The notes beneath the pieces are model-generated. The model ran no database searches. It worked only from the letters and a program-made list of their open reading frames with translations, and was not told where the DNA came from. Source: Ptychodera flava (taxonomy: Eukaryota). Taken from it: a stretch of DNA of 64,000 nucleotides. Position numbers and translations under genes: made by a program. The stretch covers positions 2,388,078-2,452,077 of the forward strand of contig NW_027248355.1 in assembly GCF_041260155.1 (NCBI RefSeq). Reading direction: 5' to 3'. Shown here piece after piece: positions 9,235-56,160 of the stretch (positions are counted from its first letter, which is position 1; every line of letters begins with the position of its first letter).

Positions 9235-9426
<192 letters not shown>

Positions 9427-9574: not shown

Positions 9575-9675
<101 letters not shown>

Positions 9676-14169: not shown

Positions 14170-14283
14170 GTTTGTAATTCTGTTTGCTCGACTGTTCTGT
14201 ATTTTAGAATTCGCATATGGATATGATAAATAGTCTTTAGTCGTCAGGTGGCGTAAGTACCTTTATCTATTTCTATTTTTCAG

Positions 14284-17589: not shown

Positions 17590-17900
17590 TTTACAATTTT
17601 CTTCTGATATACCACATGTGGGAGTTCATTTTAAAGCTCTTGGTGAAAGAAAACTTTTCACCGGCTTAGTTTATCGATATTCGAAAATTTTTGTTTTTCT
17701 CCATAGAGTTAACACATAGATGGCGGCCATTTTGAATTTCTAATATTGGTAAATCTTGGGTTATTTGTTTCTCCATTACCAAAATTTGCACCGTGACCCC
17801 CTATTTTTATTCTTGATTTTGAAAGAGAATGATTGAAAGATCTCTTGAGGAAAGTTAGAGCAAACGTTTAAGTCTTTCACTTTCGAGGTGCATACTACCT
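17590..17900 (-). repeat. Copy of a SINE-like interspersed repeat family R, about 370 bp in consensus, in minus orientation.
   Basis: Reverse complement aligns with 35265-35640 and 61305-61680 (…atatttgaaattcaaaatggccgccatc.atgtgt.aactctatgg.gaaaaa…aactaagacgg…ccacaagt…). Confidence 0.6.
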
Positions 17901-19039
17901 TAAGATGTTACTTTAAAACTTGTACAAATGTATTCAAACCACTTATATTTTAGAGTAGTTGTTAAAATGCCAAAGTGATAATAATAAATCTTAAATGTTA
18001 TCAAAAACTGCCAAACATGTAAATTACATGCTTTCGTTATTTTTGTTTGGGAGACTCGAGAAATGAGCGGTCGTTTGTTGTACTGTTAAGAAAAGTTGAT
18101 TTCATGTTTGATGGAAAAAATCGGCATATCTGAAGAAGTACTGTGTCATATTCTTTCATACCGTGCCTTCCATGGTGAAAAAATACAAGCTTGTCCCTGA
18201 GAGAGGGTGGTGTTAAACCGGTACTACAGGAACCATCTCACATTTATCAAAATAGGAGAAATCATTGTCCATTCTGTCAAAAGGTAAACAGCTGTACTTG
18301 ATGAAGTCAAACCCTAGTGATTTCCCCGCGTAGCATACTATAAGGTTATTCAAAAAATACCGGGCTTTATGTGCGAATACACCATATAATTGAGGTAAGC
18401 TTATTGTCCTCGATGCTATGCATCTCGGTCAATACCGACGCGAAGGATGTACGAGGGCCTAAATCCCTGTATTTTGTGAATAACCTTATTATTATTTACC
18501 TTTTAGTCCGATTTTACCAGAAGAAAGCTTTTAGGATGCTCCACTGACCGATCGCGAGCAGACTGAAAATACATTCAGCGAGTCCGCTAAGAACCCAGAA
18601 CGAAACCCTAACCCATCCACCCACCCAGCGCAGTGCACATGGAGTTCAGTGGCATAATAATTTCACTCAAAGTCACAGGTTTTGGACTGTCCATTATTCA
18701 CTACGTGAATTATTAAATGTTTATACGTATTTTTTTGTGTGTGAAAAATGTAAAATATTATCTTGTTTCCCGCGCTGACGTAAAGGTGAATTGGAGTGAA
18801 AGGTCAAATAGAGTACGTCCAATAACACCTGAAGTTATTTTACTCTGAGTCAAAGTTATTGGACTCCGCGTCCTCTGATACCGATACCTATCGTACGACA
18901 AAACTTCATAAGTTACAGACGCAGGTGTATAATAGTGTTTATTATCGCATTATCGTCAAAAGTTATGAATCACAGGTTCTCTCACAAATGACAACCTCCA
19001 TCATTCAACAGTAACCTGTGCTGACCTATTATCTATTCG

Positions 19040-19740
19040 GTGTGTTCGCTTGTCTTCAGCGCCGTGTTGTAGTGACCTTTGTATTTTTCAAAGATGCCCG
19101 CAACACTGGATATTGATGAAATGCGTTTGTATCTCAGATATTGTGAAGTATAGACCCCTTTTGAAAGCGTTTCTCTCCAAGTTCAAGAAATTTCTTGCCA
19201 ATATCAGTTTCCTAAAAGATTAATTATGTCAAGATCAACCAATCCATGTGGAGAAACAATAACAGGAAGGTTTCCTTACTTGGTTCGAACCTGCTGTCAG
19301 CAAGAACGTTGAAACTTATATCGGCAATACATTTCTTCAGCTTATTGACAAACTCTTTTCAAATTGGTCTAAACTTCACCAGATCTTCTGCAGGAAGACG
19401 ATTAAAGGGAATTACAGTTGTATGAAGAATATGGCAAGTTTAATCAAATCGCACTTTAGGAGAATAATCACCGCAGACCATCGTAAAGATCAACCACCTG
19501 ATCGTAATTGCCGGGCCCCTTGAGGGGTAACTGTTAAGAGGCTTGGTTTACAAGGCCAAGGTATCTACGGGAGACAATACGGAGAAGGTTTACAGCTGCC
19601 TCACTGATAACACCTTCAACATGCGCTTCACTAACCATATGCAATCGTTCCGTAAGGGCAAATACAGGAATAGTACAGAGATGTCAAAGTTTATTTGGAA
19701 CTTAGAAGACAGGGACCATGTCTTTGACGTCTGGTAGTCA
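19040..19740 (+). mobile_element. B-unit copy of the same TE fragment. ORF 19543..19737 encodes an intact GIY-YIG-like domain (VYKAKV...KVYSCLTDNTFNMRFTNHMQSFRKG...NSTEMSKFIWNLED).
   Basis: Matches the GIY-(x10)-YIG-T-(x5)-R-(x3)-H-(x3)-F pattern of GIY-YIG nucleases. Followed by CxxC...H-rich sequence. Confidence 0.5.
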
Positions 19741-20062
19741 ATAATTGATAAATCATAGAGTTACTCTAACATAAACAAGCGGTGTAGTCTTTGTATATCA
19801 GAAAAGCTGCACATTATCAATGTTGACAGATTCGCTGTTAAACAAACGCTCTGAGTTGGTTTCAAAATGTCGTCACAAAAACAAATATTATTTTATCAAA
19901 TTTACCACCACCTACGAATAGAATGGTTTGTCCGAAACATAGAAATGAGGGTGTACAGCCAGGAATCCTTTCACTTCTGTCTGAAGATTGCACGACGCAT
20001 TAAACATAGGTAACAGATAATTACTTTGTACTTGAAGTAATCTGTATATATTTCTGTAATCA

Positions 20063-22380: not shown

Positions 22381-23994
22381 ATGTTATTCAAAAGTCCAGA
22401 AAGGAGGTTTTCGACTTCATATTGAGGGGGTGGCCTTCTTGAACGTTTTGAGATATGTAGAATACAGGGAATATTTTTTTTAGAAAGTCATTGAATGCCA
22501 AAAAATTACAGGGTGGCTGGTGTTTTTATGAGGATGTTTCCATTTTTCTCGCAAGGGTTTATGAAGGGTAATTAAATTTCACGTATGCCGCTTTTGGGGA
22601 GGTAATGATTTTTACACAACTGCAAGTAGGCAAAACGCGGCCCATAAAGTATTGGCCTTGATCAGAGTGTGTAATCTCGACCTCACGTGATACCATCCTG
22701 GTTTCTTACAAACGTACGAACAATGGCAACCGTTTCCACTTATTATAAGTTTCCGAAAATTTGGATTGAAGGCCGCAAGTTGTTTACAGCTAAGCTGTGG
22801 ATTGCTGCTTCTTTGTTGCCATGTTCCTTATGATTACGCTTTCATCTTTTGTCGCCGTTTTTGATTAAAACTAATGTCACCTGCTTTCCATCAACCAGTT
22901 GATATGAATACATGCAAAAAATCCTCATTCTATAAATAGTATTTCTTGTTCTGGGCCTAACTTTTCCGTGAATTCTAATTTAATAAGTTTAATTATGATG
23001 TGACTTTAGTTGACATTTTAAATGTCGATAAAATAATGAATTCATAATACAAACACATTTTTAGAGTTCACACAAACATTAATTTAACCAGTGACTACCA
23101 CAAGTCTTTATCTTCGAAAATTTTTGCTTTGCTACGACATTCAAATAATTGTGTTTCGATGAGTTTATAAATAAGGTTTTTCTGGTTTGAATTGGTCACA
23201 TAGCCATTTTTGTACTACTGATTATTTTGGCTTGAATGTAACAGGTGAGATCCATGCTCCCCATAATTTGAATATTATTTACACGTTTATGAATGGGGAT
23301 GCGCCCTATATCCTGGGAAAAACAACAAAACACGTTGAAACGATGAATCTTTGAGTTTAACAATGGCAAAAAGGATGGAGATTGTCTGGGAAGATTTGAA
23401 ATCCAAAAATCGCTAAAGTGGTCAAATTGAGGGGAACAGTTCTGTGAGCAGTGATACACACGGGTATGGATTTTTTTCACGTCACTTTATCTGTAATGAG
23501 TTTGTGTATTGTTACACGTTACTTTGGTTTCCTGGACTAAAACGTTTGAAGCGCTTGGAGACACTTTTCTGTGTGATTTTCGCCGCAACATCCATGTCCG
23601 TTCTCTGGTTGCAAAACATTCTCTTGGCAAACTCTGTCACATTATTATTAATTTACGGTATTGTATGTCACAAAGATAGAAAGTCCCAACGACAGAACAC
23701 GGTGTTAATGATCTCACGAACCATGATTATAATTTTTCATTCCTCCTATTGTGAAGATTAAACACCTGTTTGATTGTTTATTGGGGGTCTTGAAAGACAC
23801 AGTATTTTTCGTCGAACGGATGTTGTAACATTACTTCATCGCCCAAGCCCAGGCTGTATGAAAAAGGCTTTGGTCCTTGCGCAAATCAGTGACTACGTGC
23901 ATCTAAAGCATCATTTATTATGCTTATATTTTTTTCCAGTTTCTGAACCTAAAAAATGGCAAACAGATTAATATAGACACTCCTATTCTTCACG

Positions 23995-24165
23995 AGGTTG
24001 AAAAACATGACAGTGCCTTTACAATTTCATACATAAAAAAGACGGGTTTGCGCAGTGATGAAAACTTGGCGTTATGAGCATTGCCTCAAGATGAGACACT
24101 TTTATAAGTAGAGAATCAATGTACAATAGTGACATCTACCATGCTGTAACACAAAGCTGCCAAAG
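23995..24165 (+). promoter_or_regulatory. Conserved upstream block of paralog C. TTTTATAAGTAG lies about 60 bp 5' of the ATG.
   Basis: Same conserved block as 11115-11288. The TATA-like element is clearer here, with TATAAGTA at about 24102. Confidence 0.35.
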
Positions 24166-24542
24166 ATGGACAGTAACGGAAGCACCACCAACTCGTCAAG
24201 TGGTGATGTTTCCACATACACTATGCCGGCACCAATTCTGACGATTTACCTGACTGTTGCGGCGTTCTGTGTCGTCCTGAACGCTGGCATGATTGCAGTT
24301 GTCTACATGGACAGAAAACTGCACACAATAGCCAATATAATCGTCTGCAGTATGGCGGTGACTGACCTACTCGTCGGTGTTGTCACCATTCCTCTTTACA
24401 TCGCATCAAAATTCAGCGTGTTCAGATATCTCTACCAGTGCATCTTAGCTCTCAGTTTCACAATATTTCTCGGCATTGCATCGACTTACCATTTATTGCT
24501 TGTGGCCGTTGACAGATACATTTCTATTGTATACGCGTTGAG
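24166..24542 (+). CDS. GPCR paralog C exon 1
   Basis: ATG at 24166, ORF 24166..24546, donor GAG|gtaagc at 24543-24544. The exon is 377 nt, the same length as B exon 1. Confidence 0.85.
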
Positions 24543-24656
24543 GTAAGCTGCATTCATCTTAGCCACCAACTGAATTCGTTTTCTAAATAAGTATTCCGTC
24601 TAAAATGAGGAAGGATTGGAAAGAATCTTACTTTTCAGTTTTTAAAGTGCACGGTC

Positions 24657-24660
<4 letters not shown>

Positions 24661-24737
<77 letters not shown>
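24661..24737. repeat. (CT)n microsatellite in intron 1 of paralog C. It is expanded relative to tctctctt at the homologous A and B positions.
   Basis: Direct read. Confidence 0.95.
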
Positions 24738-24739
<2 letters not shown>

Positions 24740-25248
24740 ATATATTTATTTTCCACAACGTTCTTCTTCACAGATTAAATTTACATTCAAAACACAGTAC
24801 TTCATAATGTTATCATGTGTAACCGTTTTTTCAAGAAATCAATCATTTGTTGCCTTCTTTAGTCTAATTTCATTTGCCACTTTTTATCGATAGCATGTCA
24901 CATTTTAAAGATTTTTGTTTTCGTCACGCTATCGCTGTTCTATTAAGAAATAGATGATGTATAGTTAGAATAATCAGTTAATCAATCGAATATGTACATA
25001 ATTGAATACATAATATTATATTTATTATTGTACTCGTTCATGCACTAATTGATTGCTTGTTTGATTACTCGGCAGTTGTTCACGGCTAAAATGTATCTTT
25101 TGTAGTTGACTATAATCTTGCAAGAGAAATGAATGAAATGCTATAATTTTTAAAAGGTACAAGCCAAAATGATGCATACCCATATGTTTGGCTCACTGCT
25201 AGTACACTAGCCTTACCCCCAGCGTCAATATTGTTGTTCACATCGCAG

Positions 25249-25457
25249 ATATGAAACCATTATGACAAATATGCGTGCCTGTTCCTTGCTTGCTTTCTTG
25301 TGGTTATGGTCCTTGATTGTGAGCACCCTGCCGATGGTTGGCTGGCGTAAACCGGAAGCCGCCATATTAATGACGCCATTGACTGGAAGCTGCAGGTTCG
25401 GCCTCTTCTTCGTGGAAAGTTATGCAATCGCCATAAGTGTTAACTTTACTGTTGCAG
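25249..25457 (+). CDS. GPCR paralog C exon 2
   Basis: Acceptor atcgcag|AT at 25247-25248 and donor CAG|gtcagt at 25458-25459. The exon is 209 nt. Confidence 0.85.
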
Positions 25458-26122
25458 GTCAGTGATTCTGTTTGTTCGTCTGCTCTTTGTTTTAGCTTAT
25501 GAATATGGTAACTAGCCCTAAGTTGTCAGTTGGGCATGCGCCCGGATATGGCTCTAACACGAACTTTTGTAGATAACACAATAGAGTGGCAACATTTAGT
25601 ATAGCGAAAATTTATACTTGATAAAATATGGTGATATATGTTTTCTTATACTGTTCGTAACGCAAATGAGATATGAAACATTCAATCCGGCCAGCTACTC
25701 ATATGACTAACATTCAGTAATGTGGTTGATCACGTGAGGACTACAGATCTACACGCATTTGCATACGCCTTGACACTGTTTTTCAGACAAAGACTTTGAC
25801 ATTTGACATGAAAAAGATTGGATATACCATAACAAATTTATCATCATTGAGCTGGAAATTTTAATTTACTCCTTTCTAACCTTCTCTCATGGGAATATAC
25901 ATTGCCAATAATCCTTGATAAATAACAGTTAGAAAACAAACGATTGCATACGGACTTGCGCGGTTGAAGTGCAAGGTCATATAACACCTAATCTTATGTA
26001 ATCGGTGTAGCATTGGAAAACGTACGAGTTTGAAGGCAAGATTTACGATTAGACAGACAACCACGGCAATGAGCAATCGCAAAGAAATGTGCTGACCACC
26101 TTCATCCATGTCTATTTTCCAG

Positions 26123-26532
26123 TTGCTACCGTGTTCATACTCTACGGTTGTATATTCAAATATGCGCGGGAACAAACTCGCAAAATTCGTGCAACGGCTG
26201 TGACCCAGGAAACGTCCCAGAATCCGTCCAAAGCATCCAAGCTAAAGCAGAACATACGGGCGACAATTGTCCTGTTTGTGATAATGGGTTGCTATCTGCT
26301 GTGTATGATTCCGTCCAATACGGTGCTAGCCATAGAATTCGTCGGAGACGATGAGACGGCTAACAACTTGCCTTACTTCGTACGACGACTGGGCACGGTG
26401 ATGACGTTCTTAAACTCAGCTTTGAATCCCTTAATATATGGAAGTTTCAACCGACCATTAAGATTGGCGATCAAGTCCCGACTTCTGCTTATTTGCTGCA
26501 AGAAGAAACCAACGCAAGAACTCACTACATAA
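26123..26532 (+). CDS. GPCR paralog C exon 3 including stop. It carries a 9-nt in-frame insertion relative to A and B (…PYFVRRLGTVM…).
   Basis: Acceptor ttttccag|TT at 26121-26122. ORF 26089..26532 actually begins on GTG. The true exon start follows the AG. The exon is 410 nt, versus 401 in A and B. Confidence 0.8.
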
Positions 26533-26679
26533 TCATCGGATATTTTCCGGAATAGACAAAACGTAATGATTACATCATTGTATCCTTATATATTAATACA
26601 AAACACACTTATGGTAGAATACGGCTAGGACACAGATATTTTAACTCTCAAACAGTAACACTACTTTTGTCTACCCCGT

Positions 26680-26900
26680 CTAGGGACTCATTTTAAAGCT
26701 CAGGGCGAAAATTAAGTTTTGGCCGGCTTACTTCTGTGGAAATTAAAATTTTGATTTTTCCCCATAAAGTTAAGCGCGGGGATTTGTAGCTATTTTGAAG
26801 TCTAAATTTCGGTAAATATCGGGTAATTTGATTCTCTGGTACCAAATTCAGCACGAAGTCCAGGAATTTTATTTTGTTTTCTGAAAGGAAATGTTCTTCT
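26680..26900 (-). repeat. Family R copy, minus orientation, in the 3' flank of paralog C. Only a stub survives at the homologous A site 3360-3440.
   Basis: ttttgatttttccccataaagttaagcgcggggatttgtagctattttgaa matches 17690-17740 and 55960-56010. Confidence 0.5.
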
Positions 26901-29590
26901 TAGAGAAAGCTTAAAGCCCGCCGTGGACTTAATTATAAAATCTAGCAACATATTCATATAACGATTGCAATTTCAAAGGACAACAAAAGACAGGGACACC
27001 TCATTATCTCCTTAACACCATAGTTAATACAATCCCGATCCCGGGCCTTTTCGAAGTTTGGGGGCCAGGAACTTGATCCCCCGGGTAAGTTTGTCCTAGT
27101 CTGTAAGAGATCATGGAGGTGTCATAGCCTTTTATTTCCCATTGAAATTTTAATCTAGTGAGTAAATTTCCTGGCAAGACAATCTGACGCCTGAAACAGG
27201 CCTTTAAGTATTTTAATTTGGAGGGGGTTACAACATTAATGATATTTGCTGAATATACTGGTTCTGTTTTTCCTTTTGTCGTAATGTAAGATCGTCTGAA
27301 CCTTTAAAAAAACAGTTGTGCAACCAATATTAATTCTGTCAATCGGCAGATTTTCTAACATTCGTTGTTATGTAATGTTTTAATATTTCTGTATATGTAA
27401 GAAATAATACCCTAATGAAACATGGTAGGAACTATGATATTTCTGTCACAACATTGCTTACAAAATAAGAAAATGTTGACGTTGGCGTCATAAGCATGCG
27501 CAATATATAATAGCCTCACTGTCGAATATAGGGGCCCACGTGGCTTGAAGAGATCTTCAATTAGTGGCCTTTGAAAAATATTACAATTTGAATCGTTGAC
27601 GCCACGTACATCTGTGACGGAAATAACGTCTCTTTTCAAAACGACGAGGTTACGATTTTCGTGCCTCTCACATACCTGGTGGCTACGTAGGAAGGCTATT
27701 AGTACAACCCGACTATGAAATTGAAAGTTGTTACGTAACCTGAGTTGGCTTATGTTATACGCTGTCGTCAAGCATGCTTAGCTATAGAGAATGTTCCGTT
27801 TGTATGGCAGGGGGCGGACAATGTCAATAGGGGATATCAAAAATAGGGAATCTTCAAAGGAGATTATGAAAACAGCACAGAGGAGGTCAAATGGTTTTCA
27901 TAAAATATCAATCCTTTCAAAAATCTTAGTTTCAGTGTGCAAAAATGTTTTCTGGGAAATAACGTTGATTCTGAATACTACTTTAAAACTTGTTGAAATG
28001 TGTTCAAACTTCTTACAATTTTAGGGTACCGGTAGTTGTTAGAGTAGTTGTAAAGATTGGCAATGGGGTGATAATAAATGTTAAACGTTGGTCAAAAACA
28101 ACCAACACGTAAATCACATGCTTTCTATTTTTTGTTTATGAGACTCAACAAATGAGCGTTGGTTGGTTGTGGTGTTTAAAAGTCTTGCTTTTCTTTTCGA
28201 TGAAAAGAAATCGGCTCATTGAAAAGTGCTAGGTCATTTTCTATTATACCTTGCCCCCTATTATGGAGAAATACAAGCTTGTCCCTAAAAGAGTGTGGTA
28301 TTATACTACAGAATGTCAAGGGCAAAACTGTCTTCAGTTTTGCTAAGGAAACCATCTCACTATAATCGAAATAGGAGAAATCATCGTCCATGCTGCTGCC
28401 AAGAGATTACTACATTATGACTTTCAAACCTTTGTGATATCACAGGATGGCGTACTGTTGTATTAAAGCATTATCATCAAAAGTTTTGAAACAGTTTCAT
28501 TCACAAATGAAAAACTCTTCAACAATAATATGTGCACTGATCCCGGCAGGCGTATTCAAATGAATATCATGTCCATATGACAACAAAGAACTACATATTA
28601 TATACAGGATAACAGAATTTTTAGCTTAACGTTTCAATAGTTTGCGGCAGCTATAGATTAGTAAATTCAGAAACCGTCCATCAATTCAAGCTAAATAATT
28701 GAGAAGCTCGACTACAAACTGCTACGCATGCGTGATTTGAAGGGTTTGAAGTGAACTGGTGATTTGCCGGTGCCTACTGACCGGTCGATAACCTACAGCA
28801 ACTGAAGATGTTCCACTCGATTCCCGTCTTTTTGGGGATTTCCGTCCAACACAAAGCACATTGAAGTCATGTTCACTGGTTGCTTAGCAATAAGACACGC
28901 CTTCTGTAAGTAGGCAGAACTCAACACTGAATAAGGGTAGATGTGTTTGTGTGATTGGAATCAAGGATCAACTAATAATTTCGCACAAACGGTAAAGAAA
29001 TAGACTATTCTAATAAACTAATAATAATAATAATAATTTAATAATGTTTGTTGTTTATTCTACTCATTTACTATTTTGATCAGCTACACCGGTAGCCGCC
29101 TCAATTCTGTAAATACAAAATTGTGACCATATTTGACTGGATTATAAAAATAAATGTAGAATAAAATCTCACTGCGCGTACAACAGCAAGGTTCTGAAAT
29201 TCCGAGCAAATGGTCACCATTATCAAAAAATATTCGATAATAGTATCACTGAACTCAATGATGGCGCCACAGATCATCGCTAGCGTTCGTAGACTTTAAC
29301 CCGAACAGAAAATAACAAAGGTGACGGTTGTCTGATGGAAAAGTGATGATACACGAAATAACTAGGCCAGAATAGAACAGAATTGAAATAATGGATAAAA
29401 TTCTGCGTAAAATATCGACAGGCTAACACGACGGCCAAAGTTTTAGGGGAGGGAGGTCATGATTTTTGCGCGACTGTAAGTAGGCAAGTTGCGGCCAATA
29501 TAGTGCATTACCAGGAAATATAAAATCATAATACATGGAATTTCATTTGGTAAACTTTTAACAACGCCCCGACAGAACAAGCTATTTCTG

Positions 29591-34608: not shown

Positions 34609-34924
34609 GTATGTGTAAACAATATTTATGCATAGTTAGTGCAGTGCACGATCATGATTTCAGAAAAGTGAGACGAGAAAAGAAAACGTGATAACTCCAC
34701 CAACGGTGCTTTCGAATAGTTATTTCGTTTCACTTTTGATAACATACAAAAAACTTTCCAATGACTGCTGTTATAAATCCTATCCATCTATTGACGTCAT
34801 TTTCACAGTAGGAGTAGTTTGCAGCTTTGAAGCGTATAGTTCAGCTGTGTATAGGATATGGACAATAATCGTAGCATGAACCGAAAATTTAAGGCACGTG
34901 CAACGGCCGAAGTGACACTCTGCA

Positions 34925-35100
34925 TTTAAGGTAGTATGCGTCCAGAATATGAAAGTTTCGATTTTCGAAAAATTAAGATGGTAAAAAGTTTTCTCACACC
35001 AAGAGCTTTAAAATGAACCCCACAAGTAGAAGATCGGAACAGAATAGAGTCCGAATATCTGTCCCCGAGAAGCGTTATACCTTAAAGGTATACAGTCACC
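34925..35100 (+). repeat. Family R copy, internally deleted, plus orientation.
   Basis: ggtagtatgcgtcc...aaagtttcgattttcgaaaaattaagatgg...ccccacaagtagaagatcggaacagaat...atatctgtccccgagaagcg. Confidence 0.55.
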
Positions 35101-35264
35101 TCTAATCTAAATATGCCCATATATGGTCAAAGCGGCGTTCTTTGGTGATCGAATGCCCATGTGAGGGCGCTGTTTTTAAAAAGCGGCCACCCGCTTAAAA
35201 TCAGTGATTGGCTAGATTTTCTCTTTCCATGGTAACTGCGGCAAAATTGGAACAGGTGACAGTA

Positions 35265-35640
35265 TACCTTAGGGTAGTATGTGCCTCGAAAGTGAAAGGC
35301 TTGCTCAAACTTTCCTTAAGGAATCTTTCAACAATTCTCTTCCGAAATCAGGAATAGAAATCGGGGTCACCGTTCAAATTTTGGTACTGTAGAGACAAAT
35401 TACACAAGATTTTTTTTTACCGATATTTGAAATCCAACATGGCCGACATCCATGTGTAAACTCTATGGAGAAAAATAAAAGTTTCGATTTTCTGAAAAAC
35501 TAAGACGCTGATGTTTTCTTACACCAACAGCCTACAAATTAACCCCACAAGTAGTAGATCGGAGAAGAATTGTAAGAGTTTGAGAGTCCGTACATCTGTT
35601 CCCAAGGCGCATTCTTCCTTAAGAAATAACCTCAACACTT
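35265..35640 (+). repeat. Family R copy, near full length, plus orientation. It is preceded by a 120-bp repeat R3 at 35150-35270 that also occurs at 16305-16430.
   Basis: gggtagtatgtgcctcgaaagtgaaagg...ccgatatttgaaatccaacatggccgacatccatgtgtaaactctatggagaaaaat... Confidence 0.6.
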
Positions 35641-37845
35641 TGATTTCACTTTAGACAGAAGTCGTAGGTGCACTGTCTATTTTTATCATCTCCATATTAA
35701 GGGGTGATCGAGCCACTAAATTTTTTACCAACAATTTTCGTTATTTTATTAATTATATTATTGATTTTTGTTCGCTATTTTTCCGCTGAAAGTGTGCATA
35801 AGAATTTAAATTATCACTTCTCAGGCCTTCCAAAACAACAGTTAAAGCTGTTGCAAACTTAAAAGTAATGACCACGCCTTATCAATACTTTGTAGGATTA
35901 TTTAGATTTCCAATCCAACAATTTTGTTTATTTTCACATACATTATTGTTCAGATATTGCACATTATATGAATCAAATAAAAATATGGGGTCACGAGCCT
36001 ATTTACATGCTACATCGCTTAACATCACCCACTCCCCATATGTGAAATAAAAAAAATCACAATATGAAGAGAAATATGTCCTGTTCAAATTATTTTGTTG
36101 GTATTTTTAAATACTTTGTAAATATATCTACAAACATTTAAAACGTACAACTCAACGATAGTATAATTAATCATTCAATGATCACTGACCACGTCCACTT
36201 TCATGCCAAAAGCTCAGACAATATGTTGTATGAAGATAGGTTTCCATCAAAACCACGGTGTAATTTTAACAGTAAACACGGTCCCGTACAGTGGACGCTC
36301 GCGTCGTATAGTGCGCGTTCTAATGTTTGAAGCTATGATGAGGTAGCAAATGACTCGATCACCCTGAAGAACTTTCAGATATTTCATAAAGATTTTCAAT
36401 GATATAAAAGCGCCCTCTTTCGAAATTGGGAGGTGTTTTGACATGGGGATAAGTTTCCAGGATTTATGATGGTTCAAATTCGTCTTTGTTATTTTAAAAC
36501 ACCGGTACCGGTAACAATGCCTGATTGTAATATCATATACAATGACAGTACACGAAATTACCCGCTATTCCCTTTGATTTGAATCACTGAAGCTTACTTT
36601 CATATTTTTCTCAATCCTTCATATAAGCAATAATGTGAAGCTGTAGAATAATTGTTAAATAAGGTATAGTAAAAGTACGATTAGATATTTCAGTGAAAGT
36701 TTCCAAATTAGCATTAAACAACCACATTGTTCAGGTACTTCAAATGCTATACTTTTGGGCAGCAAGTTATTACGAAGTCAGGTTGAAGGGGTCAGGAAAC
36801 TTAGCACGCAAATTTATTTTGTCATTTCTATTGGAAAAAATCGATATCATTTCTTCAAACTTTTTAGAACTAGTCTGTGACTTTGTCTACACGTGAGAGA
36901 CATGGTAGACTTCACTGCGGAATATCCGAGGGTTCAAATCATAATGAATTCTGGGAAATCTACAGTACTGTGATATTATGACGATCAAATATTCTCGTAT
37001 CATGGTTTTGTTTTTAAGTGAGGACTTGCAAGTAGAAAAAAGACCATATCAAAATGTACAATGGACAGAGTTAGAAGATAGAGGCACATGCGGAATCCAT
37101 TAAGAAAAAAACAAGTTCCAATAATGTAGTAAAACATCGCAAAGGTCATCGATTCACGTTCCCCAAATTATTTAGAATTAAAAACATGATCCCAATTCCA
37201 GTCTTCAGGTTCGGTTCAAAGCCACTCCCAGTTTCAAAATAAATTTCCATGTATGATAAAAATCTCTCCCTTTTTTGCATAAGAGTTGTTCTGATTCTAT
37301 CAACAAAAGGTGCGACCATAATAGGAATTGGATGATAACTTAGGTAGATTGTTATGTCGCTTATTTGCAGAGTAATACCGCCCTCTGTCACCATTCCCAG
37401 TAGAGTGTAGAGACGCCCAGTTGATCAAGCAAGATGTACTATTTGGCTAGCTGTGTCAAAACCACTCAAAAACTGCACAAAATTTATATTTTATGATGAC
37501 AAACACTCCGTCAATTTCACTACAGAAAATCCAGATGTTTCGTAAATGTAGTCCAAGAGAAAAACTGAAATCATATAATTATCTGGAAAATCCGAGTCCA
37601 GACTGAGGATTCCTCCAGCCAGCGACAGACCGTCATGAATAACTTGCAGAGCCTTGGGTACTTTTTCAACGTCTCGAAATCTGTGGTAATTGTCCTTCGT
37701 GAGTAGCGTAGACCCTAGTTCGGAAAGATAAGGAAAAAGGATTATTACACTACAGTATGTATATAATGGTGTTGGTGAGAAATGAAGCCTTGGATTCTGA
37801 TTCGCCTATTTGAATCGATATAGTGTTATAACTTTCTTGAAAAAA

Positions 37846-38695
37846 AACCCAACCAACCAAACAGATAGTCTGGTTCCCTGACCCATTTCCCCGGTAGAGG
37901 GCGTGGGGAAATATAGGGTCAGGTACCGGCTAATGTAAACATGGACGCTATTGGGTTAAAATAAAACAAGCTGTGATTGGATGAGTAACACTTGTAACTT
38001 TTTCTCATCTTTCTTGGGTTTCGCACTTTCAGGCTCACTTGACACCAACTTCTTGTTTGTACCACAAAGCCGTGGAGGTAGAAAGAAAGACTTTCTACCT
38101 CCATGATTTAGCCACTGTGATTTAGCACACCTCTTTGGCTAATACTTTTAGAATGTCGACATGATGCCTGGCATTTTTCACGAAATTCGGACACCATTCT
38201 ATCCATCGAAATCAATCGTCCGTTCACAATTCCAACAAAGTTTGCTTTCAATTAGCTGTGATATCGCAGCAGTACTTGTGGCGTGTATCGAACGTGCTCG
38301 GGTCATTGGGGTCACGCCACAGTCGGCGATGACCTCAATGACCCTAGCGCGTTCGATACACGCAACAAGTACTGCTGCGATATCACAGCCAGCCTTCAAT
38401 CACCTCTATTTCCCCGTACTTCTGGATTAATCCTTTCAGTGTATGTTTCCTGTCTCGTGTGCCAATGTTTTTGGTTCGGATACCAGTGTTCGAACATAAT
38501 TCTGATCCAGTCGAATTTTGACCGGCGTTTTCATGGTAGTAGCCATATTTGTTGTAGCATGTTCTGTCAGGTGACTAACCTCCGCCATCTTGAACAAAAT
38601 TCTGTTCAAGATGGCTACCCGGTACCTGACCCTATATTTCCCCACGCCCTCTACCGGGGAAATGGGTCAGGGAACCAGACAACCAAACAGACAAA
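37846..38695. mobile_element. Non-autonomous DNA element of about 850 bp bounded by 58-bp terminal inverted repeats (ctggttccctgacccatttccccggtagagggcgtggggaaatatagggtcaggtacc).
   Basis: TIRs at 37861-37919 and 38621-38679 are near-perfect reverse complements. Flanks of aaccaaacagatag / aaccaaacagacaaac are possible target duplications. Confidence 0.65.
38243..38389. repeat. Internal 147-bp palindrome with arms of about 55 bp inside the TIR element. It generates the mirror-image ORFs 38161..38430(+) and 38199..38399(-).
   Basis: gctgtgatatcgcagcagtacttgtggcgtgtatcgaacgtgctcgggtcattgg ... reverse complement. Confidence 0.8.
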
Positions 38696-40448
38696 CATAA
38701 TTCTTTGTCTCGTGTTTAACCACCCTCTCTTGGGGTGAGCTGCTTGTAACAAGCTTCATACGATAGAGGGCAGCCATCAACGTCCGCTCAGTGCTAGGAT
38801 TGCGACCTACGAGGACAAAAATTAACGGATATGAACGCACATTTTTGTGTAAGTGTTACTACAGTAAACTAGGACTGTCAAAGCATCTGACCGTTCTGTT
38901 GCTCTGTGAAGCCAATAAGAAAAGCTGTGCACAACATGTTTGTTTCCCATCCCCGCGCGCGCGCCAAACTAGGCCTGCTGCGTCAGCATCTTACCGCGAG
39001 TGATTAAAAGAATTGCATTTGACAACGCATCACCGTGAACAGACGTGCGCAAGATAGAAAATGTAGATCGGGTTCTGCGCCTGAATACCTGACTACACTC
39101 ATCGAACGTAGTAACCCTTCCAGATCTCTCCGTTCAGGAGATGTTTTTTCTCAAAATTCCCCGGATACGACACAAGTTCTATGGCGATCGTTCATTTCAA
39201 CATTCTGCGTTGTGGCATGGTCATATTCGTTCTGCATCAAGTACTTAAGTTTTCAAATCAAGACTCAGAGAACTGCTTTTCTGAGAAAGCTTAACGCATG
39301 TGATCCTGTGTAAAACGCCGGCGAACATTTTGATGCATACCGGGCGCTATATAAATTTATAATCGTCTCATAATTTATTATATGTTACAGCCCGAATGTG
39401 GGACTGTATGCCCGAGGGTAGGTGACCATTTGCACGACGCAAGGAGGGCAAATGGTCTCCTGCCTCGAGGTTACACAGTCACTTGTTTGGGCTATAGTAT
39501 TTTTATTACATGCCTCTCTTACACAGTTTTCGGTCAAAATATTTATTTTTATTAGCAAATTTAATGGCAAAATACTGTATATCCGTCTTAGACGAAAATC
39601 CGTTAAAAATGAATCGATTTTCATCACCGAGTGGCGCATTGATATATTTACACTACTGTTATGCGGTTTATCATTTTTTTATGCAAACTGTTCCTAAAAT
39701 AGGATTTCCCATGCAAAATATGAAATTTTAACATTTTTACATCCAAAAGTCGTCAAGTTGAATATAATTCAGGTTCACTTTCAGGCCCGCGACGTCATTG
39801 ACGAGTTACAATTGGATCCTATGGAGCGCGTGATATGCGATATACGAGGCACGTCATAAATACATTATATTGCCCGATACTAAGTAGTGAACCCATCCAA
39901 TCTTCTTTCTGCCTGTCACAGCAACCCGTGCATGTTAATTTGCCTGTTTTGTTTTCATGTCGGCGGAAGAATCTTAAGATATTTGAGCAAAGACAAGGAA
40001 CAAATAAATAAATGAAACGTTTAAAAGAAACGGAAAGAATTCAGATCAGGTAAAATTGAAGCATCGTATTAGCAAAGGCGTTATGACCAGAAACAAAGAC
40101 TTTTCACCTTTTTATTTCAATTGGGTGTTGCATATTATTGTAGATAGTTCGACCGGTAGAATAATGCATTGGCAGACTGAATGAGCGATCTAGATAGTGG
40201 AATAATGTTCAACAAGAAATACGCAAGTTACCCGGTATTCTGACAATTTTAATAAGTGCTTTCAAGACTCGTCTGTTCATCAGAACATATCAGCCTCACT
40301 GCTGTGACTCTGTAGAGGGCCACTTAACACTAATCCATGTTGGACTTGCGCTTGATATCGATTTGATTGATAAATTGATTGATTGATTGATTGATTTTTG
40401 TAGGACTGATGACGACTACAAAAGCTTAAATTTAGGTTTATACATTAC

Positions 40449-40908
40449 CTGTTGGTGGAAATTCAGCCGTAGGTTGTATGAGTCTCAATTGCCTCTTCGT
40501 AATAATATCGATTACTGTTTTGTCACCGACCCCTGGGGGTAGAATATAGCGAACTTGGAGACCAATGTCAGATAAACGCCTCTCGGCGCTGACGATTGAA
40601 AGTCTTATAGCATTTGAGTACTGTATTTCCCAGTGACCAGGTGACATCGGTCCGTCACATCGAATCCCAATTTCATACTTTGTACTCCACTCTTTAACAA
40701 GATCCGGGTGTTCTTCTGCAAAGTCACCATACACGAACAAGGTCAAGGGCACATCAATGTGGTATGCTTCTATTGTAGTGATCAGTTTTCGTGCTCTTTT
40801 TGCGTTCATTCCCACTTGAATTACAATAGATACAACGCGCTTGTTGTCAGCCTTTGGTAAACAGCCTTTGATAACGCTTCCCATTGCACCGGGCGTATCG
40901 CTTGGAAC
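40449..40908 (-). CDS. Internal coding exon of 460 nt, phase 0 to phase 1, of an unidentified protein (VPSDTPGAMGSVIKG…LFVYGDFAEEHPDLVKEW…RQLRLIQPTAEFPPT).
   Basis: ORF 40438..40974(-). Acceptor tttatttcttctttgttccag| at 40909-40911 and donor CAG|gtaatg at 40447-40448, both close to consensus. Product not recognised. Confidence 0.5.
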
Positions 40909-41759
40909 CTGGAACAAAGAAGAAATAAAAAAATTATTGACTGTCGTCAAAATTCCCCTGTAGACCTTTACCATCTAGCAGTGAAAAGGAAAGCCTACAA
41001 CATTGTCAACGATTCTGATCACCCTCTTCATGGTTACTTCCAGAAGCTCCCGTCAGGGAGACGTTATCGGGTCCCTCATGCAAAGAAAAAGCTCTTCAAA
41101 AAAGTCATTTCTTCCATCAGCAGTTTTTAAACTAAAACTTGATGTCATTGTTTTAAACTTCCAGTTGGTCCTTAGTTGTTTCCGTCTGTTTCAATTTTTG
41201 TATCTATGTCGCTACTTTGTGTGTTTTTAACCATTTCAATGTGTAATAGCGTCCCTTATTATAGATTTCTCTTGCCAGTTGTACTTTTTTAAATATGATG
41301 AGCCTGAAGGCAAATTTCTGCATGATTTTTATGGATAATAAAGTAAATGAATTGAATAAAGTAGAGTGCGGCGCCTTGTTTCACTGCGGTATGCGCAAAT
41401 CTTAACAATAACACATGTTATTATCCAAGACTTTGAGCACTCGTCGACATCATGGTTTTGCCATTTTTATGGACCTGTCTTAAAAAGTTTGTTTTATTGT
41501 ATTAATGTATAACATTACCGGCCAATAGTGTCCAGTATATTATAGAGGCTTTTAGAGTTACGCATTTTCCCTAATGAGAGCAATCATCATGGAGCCAATC
41601 AACACAAGTTTACCGGAAATATCAGAAATTAATCAATGTATCGACCATGGAATACTCGTGACATAATGACGGTATCCATTCGTAGTGACACCGTCATTAC
41701 GTCACTCGTATCTTTAATTCGCTGAACCACAGAGTAACATAGACAGAGTAGCAACACTT

Positions 41760-42445
41760 GCATGCCTTTTGTTCCATGGTCGTCTCGGTAGACTATCGGC
41801 TTTTCATATTAAAATGAGCTCCAAAGGTGTTAAACTTTTTGGAGGCTTTGTTTGTGGTTGATGATTACACGAGATTATGCGAAAAATACGACGAGATGGC
41901 ATCGTACTGCCAGTCGCGTAGCAACCATAGTTACTTTGTGAGCTCTCAGGCCAGAAACACTGCTTCACGCCAATCAAAACATAACACGGCAGCAGTTTCA
42001 TAAACATGTCCTTCCTTGACGCACGTGTAAAAGAGGGTACGACTGACCGTAAACCATTGAGTAAAACAAGACAGTATCGATAAAATACTTTAAAATTTGG
42101 TTCAAACACACTCATTATATATTCATAAAAATATGAAGGAATTTTTAAAACGGTAAAACTCATTTTCCTGAAGCTCAAAACACTCCCGTTTTCGCCAGCA
42201 CGTCAATTCTGCTCAGCACCACACGACAACAACAATACAAACTTTGCCGAACATACTTTCGCTTAACAATTGGCGAAAATCCGAAAACTACCAAAGGATT
42301 CATGGTCGGCACTCTTCGGAAAAGAGAGGCGAGAGCAACCTGAGGCGAGGCGAACATGGATGGGTTACGTAACCGCTTCACGCCTTAAACAATACCCGTT
42401 GCCACTCTATCTATCTTTCTCTATGGCTGAACGAAGAAAATATCA
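41760..42445. repeat. Arm 1 of a large inverted repeat of about 670 bp. It pairs with 49775-50410.
   Basis: Reverse complement of 49790-50410 aligns throughout. The mirrored ORFs 41804..42178(-) and 50150..50347(+) give ...CYVLIGVKQCF.PESSQS.YGCYATGS.MPSRRIFRIISCN... Confidence 0.8.
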
Positions 42446-43733: not shown

Positions 43734-46639
43734 CTGAAAGATCTGTCGCTTGAGGGCGCTCTCTAAACCCCGCCTTTCTCAGTGGGAGAGGGAAACATAG
43801 AGATCGCCCTCGAGCGACGGATCTTTTAGTCGAAAACATACCGCAGTATCGCAATTTTTGGCCAGAATCTATTTGCTTTAGCGATTACACTACGGTGCTC
43901 ATACCATCGCCATTTTACGTATAACTGTCTTTCTCTGCATGTCAATTTTAATATGCCTGATTGTGCAGCAGATTAGTGTCAAGGTCACAATTACCTAGAC
44001 GTAATACAGAGTCTGAAAACCTTACCAAGTGCAGTTCTTTGTGTCATAATGGTCTTAAATGTATTTTGTGTCATAATGGTCACTAAGCCTATTAAAGTTA
44101 CTTCAGGGATAGGCTTTGATGTGATCCTGCGAGAGGCGTCCAAATGTTAAGAATGATATCATGAACCATGAACGTGGAGCTTAAATGACCAGTGATGTTG
44201 ACGTTTGAAGATTTTTTCAGCATTTTTGTTTAACAAGATTTGAGCTAATTCGGGAAAATTGGATGGGAGTAATTATTAGGAAAGCGTAACAAACTCAAAA
44301 TTTTTACAAAATGATCAGTAGAATAGTGTAAAATTTGAAATATTGTTCTCATCGAACAAAACAACAAAAACACATCGATTATTTCATACTTCTTTCATTG
44401 GATTCTTTTTTTTACGAAAACAACTTTATTTTGTGTAAATGTTATAAAGAAACGAGACATAGTATTTAAAATATTTCTGATTGATGACTTTTGAGTCAGG
44501 GCACTTTTGATATGTCTCTAACTTTTAAGCGAATTTAGGACTTCACAAACACTAAATTGAGTCAGGACACATTTTAAATGACCCTGACTGACGTAACTGT
44601 AAATCAATCTAAAAACTTCATTTTGGTTGAGGCAAAGTGACAAACTGAGATTAGTACTAGTGTTTCAGTAATGAAGAAACTACAGACAAGTTCACACATT
44701 TCCATTCAAATATGAATATTGTTCATATGTTTTGAACAATATTGCATTAGATACTATCATGCACTGATACTTACTCATAACATTTCAACAGCATCGCAAA
44801 TTTTGAATAAAATGATAAAGATTGTAAGAATAAATGGTTTAATAGTAGACAAATTTCTTAAAATCTTGAGAAATTGTGGCAATCCGATGATCCCAATTTA
44901 GTTCCAATCTTGTTGTTTTTGTTTTACTGTTCTACTCCCCAAAATTTGTTGAGATACACAGTATCCAGCTTGTTAACTCAGCCTGTACATGTCCAAAGTG
45001 CGTTGTTGTTATTGTTGTTGTTGTTGTTGACAAGTGAATTCTGATTCGGACTTGAATTCAAATGTAAACAATAACAGTGCATTTTACCCATACAGATCGT
45101 TTACTACCTTCTGAGGTAGAAAAAATCATATTAGCCCCCTTTCCCGCCTCAGATGGGCCGTCCGCCGTGTACATAACGAGGAAGACTCAGGACTGTGGAC
45201 CGCATTAACCAAATTTCGTGTTTGAAAACGATGCACATAGCACATTTTTTCTGAACAACAATTAGTCCTAAATAGCAATGGCAAACATGGCCATCTGTGG
45301 AGCTTATACGGTATTCAGGGTCTTTCAATACGCAGCTGTGCAATGGAAATACGAGGAAAAGAGCCCTTTTATGTCCTGTTTTGTCATGCGTGTCTATTCT
45401 TGGTTGGATGTGCTATTATATTGTGTCGGTAATTTATTGCTCTTACGTAATACAAACCTTGCATTTTAATAAATGGCTATGTTTGTGTCTGGACCCTGGG
45501 GTGATTGCAAGCTTACCCTCAGACACAACAACAATCCGACGGGACTACCTGTAAATTTGACATTATTTAGAGTGCAATTAACTAAAACGTCACATTGAAG
45601 CAGAGGGATGATTTAAACTTGGGTTTCTCTGTTGATGTTTGACTTCGAATTATTTCTTTCATACCCAGGAGTCGGTACAATTGTGATACAATTGGATTGC
45701 TTTGAGTTCACTCTTTCATGACCAGCAGTGTTAATATGAAATAATTTTAATACATTTTTAATACATTGCGACTGCTTTGAGTTTTCATGTATAATTTATT
45801 AGTAAGTGTGATATATTGGTACTTAGCACAAAATACGGGCAAGCATCGATCAGGACTAGACCATTCCATATTAGGGGGCTAGATAAGAATGACAGAATAC
45901 AGTTCTTCCTCCAAAGATTTCACATATTGTATATTATAATAGCCTGATCGTACACCCACCCCCCAAAAAAACTCTTTTCATATTGCTTGTCAAGCTTATA
46001 ATTTTCTGCAAACGCATCTAGCCCGAGTCGAGAGAAATACTCGGTAGCCTCCTTGTGACCACTCTCTATTACGATATTATGACGCATCGGTTAATCCATA
46101 CTCCTATCATACAATCGCATCATGTCGCAGAGGTCAGTTAAATGGCTCTCGACAACGGCTTTGCTCTATCAACCCCCTTTTTAGTCTGTGATATTTCTTA
46201 TAACGACATGTTATAAACATTTTTCTCCCACAGTTCCTTCACCGGATTGAGGGACTGTACATCTCTCCTTACTCAACTTGTTATTGTAATTCTGAATAAT
46301 TGACCCCACACTTCTATTGTTAGTTACAGTCAGTCCACAAACATTGCCTAATCACGTGGCATACATTCTAATCGCACTCTATACTAATTAATAGAAAAAG
46401 GAAGTAGTCTGTTCACGTAATTAGTAGGGCTCGTGTGCAGCGTCTCTGAAGCTGCTATCTAATTGGCTGTTATAATTGAATAATACAAATGGACTCCCTA
46501 AGTTGCTGTGAATAGTGACAATCGAAGGACACGCTGCACATCAGCATAATTAGTACGCTGCATCGAAAGTGAAATTACAGTTTTGCTTCAATTTTCCTTA
46601 GTGACAGTTTTATCAATTGACTTTCTAATCAAGAATAAA

Positions 46640-46870
46640 CTCTGGGGTGTCCTGACATTTACTGATATTTGAAATTCAAAATGGCCGCCATCCTTGTGTC
46701 AACTCTGAAGTTGGGCAAAACACTTTGCGTCGCTTTTCAAAAACTAAGACGGAGATTTTCTATTACTCAACGGGCTGTAAAATGACCCTCTACAAGTGGT
46801 AAAAAGGTCATTTGGGAGCCTAAATATCTGCCCCTGAGGCGCGATATACTGTAAGGCATCCATTACTGTG
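46640..46870 (+). repeat. Family R copy, 5'-truncated, plus orientation.
   Basis: tttactgatatttgaaattcaaaatggccgccatccttgtgtcaactctgaag...aactaagacggag...atatctgcccctgaggcgcg. Confidence 0.55.
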
Positions 46871-49774: not shown

Positions 49775-50410
49775 CGTATAAGCACAGACAAATAGAGAAA
49801 CAGACTAGCAACGGGTATTGTTCAAGGCGTAAAGCGGTTACGTAACCCACCAATGTTCGCCTCGCCTCAGGTAGCTCTCGCCTCTCTCTTCAGAAGAGTG
49901 CCGACCATGCATCCTTCCGTAATTTTCGGATTTTTGCCAATTGTTAAGAGAAAGTATATTCGGCAAAGTTTGTGTTGTTGTTGTCGTGTGGTGCTGAGCG
50001 GAATTGGAGTGTTTTGAGCTTCAGGAAAGTGAGTTTTACCATTCTAAAAAATCCTCTCATATTTTATGAATATATAATGAGTGTGTTTGAACCAAATTTG
50101 AAAGTCTTTTATCGATAATGTCTGGTTTTCGTCAAGGAAGGGCATATTTATGAAACTGCTGGCGTGTTATGTTTTGATTGGCGTGAAGCAGTGCTTCTGC
50201 CCTGAGAGCTCACAAAGTACCTATGGTTGCTACGCGACTGGCAGCATGATGCCATCTCGTCGTATTTTTCGCATAATCTCGTGCAATTATCAACCACAAA
50301 CAAAGTCTCCAAAACGTTTAACACCTTTGAAGCTCATTTTAATATGAAAAGGCCATAGTCTACCGAGACGACCATGGAACAAAAGGCATGCCGCGTTGCT
50401 AGTCTGTTTC
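49775..50410. repeat. Arm 2 of the roughly 670-bp inverted repeat. It is flanked by CTA/CTT trinucleotide arrays and by a short directly duplicated segment (49590-49700 versus 50455-50600).
   Basis: See arm 1. AHDL...LLLLLL ORFs recur on both sides at 49356..49694 and 50454..50693. Confidence 0.8.
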
Positions 50411-51968
50411 TCTATTTGTCTGTGGTATAAGTGACAAAAGTTACAAATTAACGTTGAAAGTTGCTCATGATTTGCATGCACTACTATGTACTGCTTTTCT
50501 TCTTCTTCTTCTTCTTCTTCTTCTTCTACTACTACTACTACGAGCACATCTGCCACTACTACTACTTCTACTACCTCTTCTACTACTACTGATACTAGCA
50601 ATGACGTATTCTTACAATGCAGTTCTTGTCTGTCCATTGCTATGCCGCGGATGTAAAGGGAAGCAAGAAAACAGAAAAATTAGAAGCAAATAGTTTTGCA
50701 TATAGACTTTATGCGACAGAAAATTGGTACTTGTAATTATGTCGGATGCCAAATCGCAAACTCCATGTGAACAAAAATTAAATACAGCTATGATACTACG
50801 CCTCCACTGATATGACCATGTAATTGGTCGCTTATATTCAAATGTATGTACATGAAGGGAGCACCTCTGTCTACCACCCTTCTCTGTCTGGCTCTCACTG
50901 TCTTTCTCTGTGTCTGTCTGTCTGTCTGTCCGTCTCTCTCTCTCATATCGTCTACAAAAAAGTGCAACCAATGGCAACTTGTCCCGTTGTATAAAACCCC
51001 ACCCTTTAAAACGAATCCAAAATAGACAACACTTGATAAACGCTTTTCACTCATCGACGCAGGCACCAAAAATGACTTGATCGAAAGTGACTTGTGGAAT
51101 CGTAATACATTGATTTTGCTGTCGAGATCAGGTGACCCTCTCTTTGGCCCACACCTGAAGTCGAACTTAAGCCATCTGATTAACTCTGGTAAAACTATGA
51201 TTTAATTTTGTTACGGGCGTATTCAAATTCTTGGCCGTACGTTTTTAGTAAACTAGCATATGATTAGATATCTCGAAATACAATTAACGGCAGATGTGCC
51301 TCAGATGCGTGCTACAATTAAGTTGCCAGGAATGGAGATAAAAGAAGGGAGACTTCAGTCCTGGGGATAAATAGTTTGGCTTGCTTCGATGACCTGCTTC
51401 AAAGTATTCACCTCATAAATATCTGAAGTTCGTTTCAACTACATAGTATTTACTTTTGGTAAACAGATGACACTGGCATATCTTTCGCCCAAGACGCAGA
51501 TTCTCTTATATCTGTGTTGGTGTTGAGCGCTAGCGGGAACGTCTTTCGTTATCCTCCCATAGAGGCAAGGGTTCTCAAACAACAAATTAAAGGCGGGATT
51601 TCAATCATCAAAATAGAGAGGGTCTAAGGGAGAAAATAATCCAAACCTAAATATCAATACGCCACTACGTGATCGTGCAACTCATGATTTACTTATAGCA
51701 CTCAGTGATGATACTGCCTTTAAGGCAAAGGTCTAACAAAGCCGTATAAAACATTGCAACTGATTTACCTTCGAAAAAAAGGCTGGTAAAAACAATTATT
51801 ATCGCGTCGCCAATTAGGTGTGTCTGCTTTGAATGCAAATCGACTTCTTATTTAGATCCTGGTGTATTGATCATAAATATCGAATCTGCCTTTGTGTTAA
51901 CGACTGATTGGTGCGTGCATTAACGTTTGTGTCAGATAATTCTCATAGGAATGTTACCTCCGTAACAT

Positions 51969-55178: not shown

Positions 55179-55849
55179 GTTTTTGTTTGAAAACCAGAGA
55201 GGGTTTAAGTCTACATTCCTCCCCGTTTATTCACAAAAGTATCTCTACTTTGTCACAATTTTGTCTGTTTTGTCGAACGTCCCAATGACGAGGAATATGA
55301 ATTCTGCCTATTTGAACATGCCAGATACTTAGACAATCAGGGTGTCTAGCATACGGGTGCCAAAAGTATTGTACACTGTGTAGTCAACATTGCTTTGAAT
55401 TGAATAAATACTGGTACTGGTCCGTGACCTCTAACTCGGCTACAGATACAATTAGTCGAGATCAGTCGTATAGAACGATTCCTGTGTCCTTCTTTAGGCC
55501 CCAATCAAAAGCGCTCGAGAACGGTTGAGACCCTGCAAATGTAGTGCAGCTGGCCGGCAGTGCAAAAGACAGCAGAGCGCACAATTTTATTCCACCCCTC
55601 CCCATGGTCTCGCAGGGTACTATTGTGACAAGATGGTATTCATTAAAATATTAACGTTCTGAACGGCATGTTTCTCCAAAGGGTGTTGTACCCTCTTGTA
55701 ACTATCGATACAAGATGGTACTTAATTTAAAGTACGAATGTTCTTAGCTTTCTGGTTATAATGCATAACAAAAAATTAAATTAAAAATTTAACTCTTCCA
55801 TTTGTTCACCCTTTACTAAGGTAGAACACGCCTCGGGGACAGAAATTTG

Positions 55850-56160
55850 GGGCTTCCAAATTATCAATTCTCTTCTGACTTACCACTTGTGTGGGCTCAT
55901 TTTAAAGCTCTTGATTAAAGAAAAGTATTCACCGTCTTAGTTTTTCGAAAATCGAGAATTTTATTTTCCACCGTAGAGCTAAGACATGGATGGCAGCCAT
56001 TTTGAATTTTAAATATCACCAAATTTTTCGTAATTTATCTCTCTAGTACCAAAATTTCCGCCGTGACCCCTGATTTTTATTCTTGCTTTGGTAAGAGAAT
56101 TGTCGAAAGTTTATTTGAGGAAATGTTGAACAAATGTCTGAGTCTTTCACATCGCTTCAT
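55850..56160 (-). repeat. Family R copy, minus orientation.
   Basis: About 80% identical to 17590-17900 over about 300 bp. Confidence 0.6.

Follow-up and report, generated by a model that had tools for sequence, protein, structure and literature searches.

A dispersed 351-bp repeat of Ptychodera flava is most likely an ancient, TTAA-inserting MITE family of the Kolobok type

The dispersed repeat that we analyzed in a 64-kb window of the Ptychodera flava genome (the window being the whole stretch of DNA under study) is a real family, with a consensus element of 351 bp (about 350 bp) and copies on both strands, as judged by self-BLAST and nhmmer. It is an ordinary, ancient, TTAA-inserting MITE family, most likely of the Kolobok type, and it is accompanied by a second, shorter TTAA-inserting MITE family of the same kind. 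Taking the two TTAA-flanked families together, we consider it likely that both consist of class II DNA transposons of the non-autonomous, cut-and-paste kind, with the Kolobok superfamily as the leading candidate. The first-pass annotation of this DNA had called the repeat SINE-like and had left it between a MITE and a novel SINE class. Of these, the MITE proved right, because the elements have TIRs, TTAA flanks, and an internally deleted copy that keeps both ends, and they are without coding capacity.

A BLAST search of the window with the interval 35265-35640 found five further places at 66 to 78% identity, and an all-against-all BLAST of the window added two more. The nhmmer profile, which was built from six long main-family copies, returned eight strong members (E 1e-99 to 1e-26) and several fragments (Table 1). 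All eight places listed in the first-pass annotation are real and were given in the correct orientation; their coordinates were approximate, being up to ~90 bp off at 46550 and 3250. The conserved blocks quoted there are all present in the 351-bp consensus and in the same order, and the profile search bore out a family dispersed in both orientations.

Table 1. Members and fragments of the main family and copies of the companion family in the window
Feature	Position	Strand	Evidence and extent
Main family, focal full-length copy	35273-35618	+	nhmmer E 2e-95, model 2-348
Main family, internally deleted derivative, 152 bp	34930-35081	+	nhmmer E 9e-26
Main family, full-length copy	17548-17899	-	nhmmer E 2e-99
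Main family, nearly full-length copy	55820-56160	-	nhmmer E 1e-93, model 17-348
Main family, full-length, strongly diverged copy	61309-61653	+	nhmmer E 6e-86
Main family, copy with internal deletions and decayed ends	46550-46851	+	nhmmer E 3e-67, model 6-347
Main family, copy in duplication unit 3	26613-26932	-	nhmmer E 4e-75, model 25-348
Main family, remnant in duplication unit 1	3250-3463	-	nhmmer E 3e-32, consensus 132-348 left
Main family, remnant in duplication unit 2	14687-14799	-	nhmmer E 9e-5, consensus 35-142 left
Main family, fragment, consensus 27-151	17348-17455	-	nhmmer E 7e-9; BLAST 17406-17447
Main family, marginal nhmmer matches	53445-53551 and 63707-63842		
Companion, second MITE family, 184 bp	35086-35269	+	TIR pair and TTAA on left
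Companion, truncated copy, 3' 113 bp only	16314-16427	+	BLAST to 35153-35268, 88%

The consensus carries 16-bp TIRs, GGTAGTATGCGCCTCG at the 5' end and GGTAGAACGCGCCTCG as the reverse complement of the 3' end, which match at 14 of 16 positions, and alignments between copies break off sharply at the common ends. When up to 3 mismatches are allowed, the window contains eight occurrences of the terminal 16-mer GGTAGWAYGCGCCTCG, where shuffling predicts 0.37; all eight mark the end of a copy and point the expected way. Of the 40 bases in the 4-bp flanks, 31 agree with TTAA (binomial p 2e-9), a near-TTAA form at both flanks being retained by three copies only. The target-site duplications raised in the first-pass annotation are thus present as TTAA on both sides and not in the variable-length form of SINEs.

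Among the individual copies, the focal one at 35273 is 89% identical to the consensus, has the termini GGTAGTATGTGCCTCG (5') and CAAGGCGCATTCTTCC (3'), and is flanked by TTAG and TTAA. The full-length copy at 17548 is 90% identical, with flanks TTAA and TTGA, and the fragment at 17348, which is part of another copy, adjoins it. At 61309 the identity has dropped to 78%, and TTAA is no longer readable in the flanks. The copy at 26613 has the 3' end TTCTACC, then ATAA. At 55820 the 3' TIR is intact (CGAGGCGTGTTCTACC, then TTAG), and the 5' TIR is degenerate or replaced. A 105-bp direct repeat (56149-56253 and 56791-56895; 98% identical, 642 bp apart) begins within this degenerate 5' end; its two parts are separated by a (CA)n microsatellite and probably go back to a local tandem duplication of recent date.

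The short copy at 34930 consists of consensus positions 1-11 fused to ~200-351, so that both termini are kept. It has perfect TTAA/TTAA flanks and an inverted pair at 34925-34942 and 35069-35086, and it is an internal deletion rather than a 5' truncation. Loss of internal sequence with retention of both ends is the usual outcome of interrupted gap repair in DNA transposons. Treated as a single strand of DNA, the consensus forms an end-to-end fold that also includes subterminal pairing (z = -3.4), and folding of this kind is typical of MITEs. The consensus has no coding capacity, stop codons being present in 6 of 6 frames, and a search of the protein collection with its concatenated open frames gave no matches. 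An alternative parsing, with AGG...CCT ends and a TA duplication as in Tc1/mariner-like elements, was rejected because under it the two flanks of the 34930 copy would differ (TTTA versus TAAA), whereas with GG...CC ends both flanks are, by inspection, TTAA; it also gives no reason for the conservation of the outer T and A.

With regard to the superfamily, Kolobok elements are described as having TTAA duplications and 5'-RR...YY-3' termini, unlike piggyBac (PMC9587614; PMC6004289), they have been reported from hemichordates (PMC9587614), and Kolobok MITEs of insects have a mean length of ~386 bp (PMC5199201). The termini of both families in the window fit 5'-RR...YY-3', with GG...CC in the main family and AG...CT in the companion; therefore, Kolobok fits and piggyBac does not, an assignment made from the target-site duplication and the termini only. 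Sola is a further superfamily with 4-bp target duplications. The Xenopus T2-MITE (Xmix) and Kolobok MITEs resemble the main family in their TTAA duplication, RR...YY termini, short TIRs, length of a few hundred base pairs, and lack of an ORF. Ten Xenopus Kolobok elements have ends in which TTAA is followed by AG..., and the T2-MITE terminus is AGGRR (PMC6004289), which the AGG... start of the companion resembles. In contrast, the main family starts with GGTAG, its host is a hemichordate, and it has no sequence similarity to described Kolobok elements past the first ~9 bases.

No transposase was found in the 64-kb window by tblastn, and a literature search for Kolobok in Ptychodera or Saccoglossus gave nothing specific. 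A profile made from eleven transposase cores (Data S5 of the cited Kolobok paper) had 172 matches in the protein collection, nearly all of them with Pfam PF20700. No P. flava protein was among these matches, which came from a word-indexed search that may miss relatives, and an autonomous P. flava partner with matching ends (GGTAGTATGCG...) was not found. The profile did match, at E 4e-64, a protein (P0010) of another hemichordate, Glandiceps talaboti. The corresponding locus (L017, OZ203278.1) contains a 9.2-kb element, at 7609-16845 in the interval 7605-16849, with the PF20700 transposase gene inside, perfect 16-bp TIRs GGAAGGATGATACTTA, and TTAA on both sides, its ends reading TTAA and then GGAAGGATG... 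The first 9 bases of this element agree with GGTAGTATG of the main family at 7 of 9 positions, and its TIR agrees with the 3' TIR of the 35273 copy (GGAAGAATGCGCC) at 9 of 13. The G. talaboti element and the MITE thus have a hemichordate host and the TTAA/TTAA duplication in common, but the former is 9.2 kb long, encodes a transposase, and comes from a different acorn-worm family. There is no internal similarity between the two, the likeness being limited to ~9 terminal bases. We tried the G. talaboti element as the direct parent of the MITE and rejected it in that role; because of the absence of internal similarity and the different acorn-worm family, it is better seen as a relative in kind. 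The element looks structurally intact and lies in the range of a PARP14-like gene model.

Mobilization of the MITE would then depend on the transposase of an autonomous Kolobok element elsewhere in the genome, which would bind the inverted ends, excise the MITE, and paste it into a TTAA site, thereby duplicating the TTAA. The head-to-tail cluster at 34930-35618 probably arose by successive insertions into TTAA sites regenerated by earlier insertions. The full companion copy lies exactly between the main-family copies at 34930 and 35273 and has their flanking TTAA sites in common with them, as expected from such successive insertions.

The companion repeat was already noticed in the first-pass annotation, and the match between its two copies was confirmed (Table 1). 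The full copy starts with TTAA and then AGGTATAC..., and its TIRs, AGGTATACAGTCACCT and AGGTGACAGTATACCT, match at 15 of 16 positions (arms 35085-35101 and 35254-35270, 94%). The truncated copy at 16314 ends in ...GTATACCT, then TTAA, and lies between the two copies of a 15-bp direct duplication, TTAACCTATGAAACA (region 16292-16442), which is unusual for a TTAA transposon. At the equivalent place in unit 1 of the tandem duplication described below (~4996-5010), TTAACGTATGACACA is present once and without insert, a true empty site, and therefore units 1 and 2 had already separated when this insertion took place. Probably, a normal TTAA insertion came first, and the element then lost its 5' 70 bp, with an 11-bp templated fill-in from the right flank, a reading that we favor because the 15-bp duplication starts with TTAA and the insert stops at the element terminus. 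A retroposition-like event is the less likely alternative to this combination of insertion and rearrangement.

The best-known family that inserts at TTAA is piggyBac, and the repeat might accordingly be a MITE moved by a piggyBac-family transposase. TTAA flanks and short TIRs are indeed present, the small size is likewise shared with piggyBac-derived MITEs, and piggyBac elements are widespread among marine invertebrates (PMC10813416). However, the TIRs of the 212 piggyBac types surveyed start with CACTA, CCCTC, CCCTT, or CCCAT, so that piggyBac ends begin with CCC or CAC and finish with GGG (PMC10813416), whereas the main family begins with GG and ends with CC (GGTAG...CTACC). This GG/CC-type difference at the termini is the criterion by which Kolobok is told from piggyBac in PMC9587614, and the hemichordate Kolobok element of G. 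talaboti, with its similar GGAAG... ends, also argues against piggyBac, which we regard as unlikely. Far less probable still is the reading of the repeat as a SINE, in other words a retroposon that pol III transcribes and a LINE copies. The two have a similar length, dispersal in both orientations, and a location in introns and gene flanks in common, the 5' part is missing from some copies (3250-3463), and the 15-bp duplication around the truncated companion resembles the product of target-primed reverse transcription. Nevertheless, the earlier statement that no tRNA or 5S head is evident was upheld, with 0 tRNA genes in the window by ARAGORN and 0 Rfam matches at gathering thresholds; at E values up to 1, Rfam gave for 34850-35700 only a 16-bit chance snoRNA match across an element junction. 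Furthermore, an A-rich or simple-repeat tail is absent, the copies ending in ...CTACC with TTAA directly after; there are 16-bp TIRs and a fixed TTAA flank instead of variable duplications; and the short copy at 34930 retains both ends. The 3250 copy lost its 5' part by a later deletion, given that almost the whole element is preserved in its paralogue at 26613, and the companion's 15-bp duplication opens with TTAA next to an insert that stops exactly at the element terminus. A SINE is excluded by its defining features, and neither the SINE-like label nor a novel SINE class can be kept.

The copies could also be by-products of segmental duplication instead of transposition, and the window does contain three tandem copies of a ~12-kb unit (~1-9250, 11076-20051, and 23960-29446), which are 72 to 91% identical. 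In each unit there is a GPCR gene of the rhodopsin type, which is split and has DRY and NPxxY motifs, and the first exon of unit 3 (ORF 24166-24546) is 100% identical over 126 residues to the NCBI entry "5-hydroxytryptamine receptor 1D-like [Ptychodera flava]". The copies at 3250, 14687, and 26613 have an equivalent place in units 1 to 3, just downstream of the last GPCR exon: the one in unit 3 lies ~80 bp downstream of it, the remnant in unit 2 begins 3 bp past the stop codon of the GPCR ORF 14292-14684, and unit 1 at 3225-3468 aligns with unit 3 at 26589-26833 in the all-against-all BLAST. Because they are positional homologues in the three units, these three are one insertion that preceded the duplication, after which each unit lost different parts of it. 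Segmental duplication, which the first-pass annotation had named as the finding that would overturn its view, thus holds for these three only. The other five or six copies share no flank similarity, alignments end at the element ends, both orientations are represented, and copies are also present outside the duplicated segment (34930-61653), so that as a general explanation segmental duplication has next to nothing to recommend it. Given that the flanks of main-family copies are unrelated, the segmental paralogues excepted, we count ~7 to 8 independent main-family insertions in 64 kb.

The tandem units also bear on age. The copy at 17548 lies within a ~610-bp block that is present in unit 2 and wholly absent from unit 1, and unit 3, which has lost the stretch matching unit 2 at 15904-17909, has a deletion breakpoint at this place; the comparison of this site in units 1 and 3 gave no clean empty site for a main-family copy. 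Copies of the main family are 72 to 90% identical to the consensus (differing by ~10 to 35%; K2P 0.10 to 0.35), figures that are underestimates of divergence as the consensus was made from the same copies, and the GPCR units have diverged by 10 to 28% since their duplication. The copies in the window are inactive fossils of an old family, because of the ~10 to 35% divergence and because one insertion is older than the GPCR triplication. The paralogous copies serve as relative dates in this respect, placing one main-family insertion before the threefold duplication of the GPCR gene.

Inside the element, the stretch ...GATATTTGAAATTCAAAATGGCCGCCATCC... is the best conserved, with a mean column identity of 0.81 versus 0.68 overall, a difference that is not significant by column permutation (p = 0.10). 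On the opposite strand this core reads GCCATTTTG and fits the pattern GCCATNTTG, which has been labelled YY1 (PMC8824890). The window contains 11 instances of this pattern, where 2.4 would be expected; five of them are in the main family and two in another TIR element. That second element, at 37868-38680, is 813 bp long and has 65-bp TIRs that are 98% identical and an 11-bp direct repeat AACCAAACAGA on both sides; it resembles a young MITE from a different superfamily, possibly Mutator-like to go by the length of the duplication. Beside its right TIR, at 38584-38615, lies a palindromic pair of GCCATCTTG motifs. Another GCCGCCATTTTG motif outside the main family is found at 54240-54270 (GATATTTTGGCCGCCATTTTG), in a context like that of two of the metagenome contigs described next (L005 and L014).

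The 22-mer core RAAATTCAAAATGGCYGCCATC corresponds to consensus positions 159-180 (e.g., 17712-17733, 46666-46687, and 55982-56003). An exact scan of metagenome and prokaryote-genome collections with this 22-mer found 16 loci (L001-L016), 15 of them metagenome contigs and one a contig of a metagenome-assembled bacterial genome. The metagenome contigs have a GC content of 0.37 to 0.48, and several resemble invertebrate host DNA. Most have nothing but the 22-mer in common with the family; L005 and L014 have ~110 bp in common with it (E 3e-7), and several contigs contain a second, inverted GCCGCCATNTT copy. None of the loci has the main-family TIRs, and they are of no help in classifying the element. 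The 22-mer can also be read as a Kozak-type start context, AAAATGGCCGCC, and codon or Kozak bias, or chance, may inflate the number of matches. A literature search for the core sequence gave a single match, in a Drosophila neuron paper. The motif could be a YY1- or TISU-like site, a shared transposon core, or a reflection of Kozak or codon bias.

Conceivably, the element or its core has a function for the host, with the YY1-type or TISU-like palindromic site (GCCATTTTG...CAAAATGGC) acting as a promoter or insulator module, which would be compatible with a MITE origin. The conservation of the core ...TTTGAAATTCAAAATGGCCGCCATC..., the excess of the pattern in the window, and the 15 metagenome contigs with the exact 22-mer, several with the second inverted copy, might be taken to favor this. 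However, the conservation falls short of significance as given above, the motif has been lost from several copies, and the Kozak-type reading of the 22-mer may account for part of the matches, so that we think a host function quite improbable. A broader and decidedly speculative version, to which we give very little credence, is that the core ...TTTGAAATTCAAAATGGCCGCCATC... is a putative palindromic YY1/TISU-type module present in a number of small, mutually unrelated transposons of marine invertebrates, which would have spread a promoter or insulator motif, some copies being co-opted. If this were true, the carriers would include the main family, the TIR element at 37868-38680, and the contigs L005/L014, L006, and L011/L015, and the copies that directly follow the tandem GPCR genes would be examples of co-opted ones.

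The genome of P. flava, a hemichordate acorn worm, measures ~1.2 Gb (PMC4729200). Since it has RepeatScout and RepeatModeler libraries (PMC4729200, PMC11175523), the main family is probably already masked in it without a description. Our analysis puts a correct label (DNA transposon, TTAA, Kolobok-type) on a repeat that is densely represented in this region of the P. flava genome and supplies its consensus; both help with masking repeats and annotating genes in an organism that serves in research on deuterostome origins. Current knowledge of transposons is left unchallenged by the findings on the main family and the companion.

The window has the look of eukaryotic DNA: its GC content is 33 to 43%, dinucleotide microsatellites are common in it, and its GPCR exons are split. 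The heterozygosity of P. flava is 1.3%. Another repeat, of ~690 bp, is present at 41726-42416 and 49794-50426 in inverted orientation, the two copies being 83% identical and 7.4 kb apart. The longest ORF of the window (40438-40974, minus strand, 178 aa) has a sub-threshold match to Pfam Polysacc_deac_1 (E 0.003, 18 bits versus a cut-off of 23.1) and, judging from its sequence, may be an exon of a chitin/polysaccharide deacetylase-like gene.
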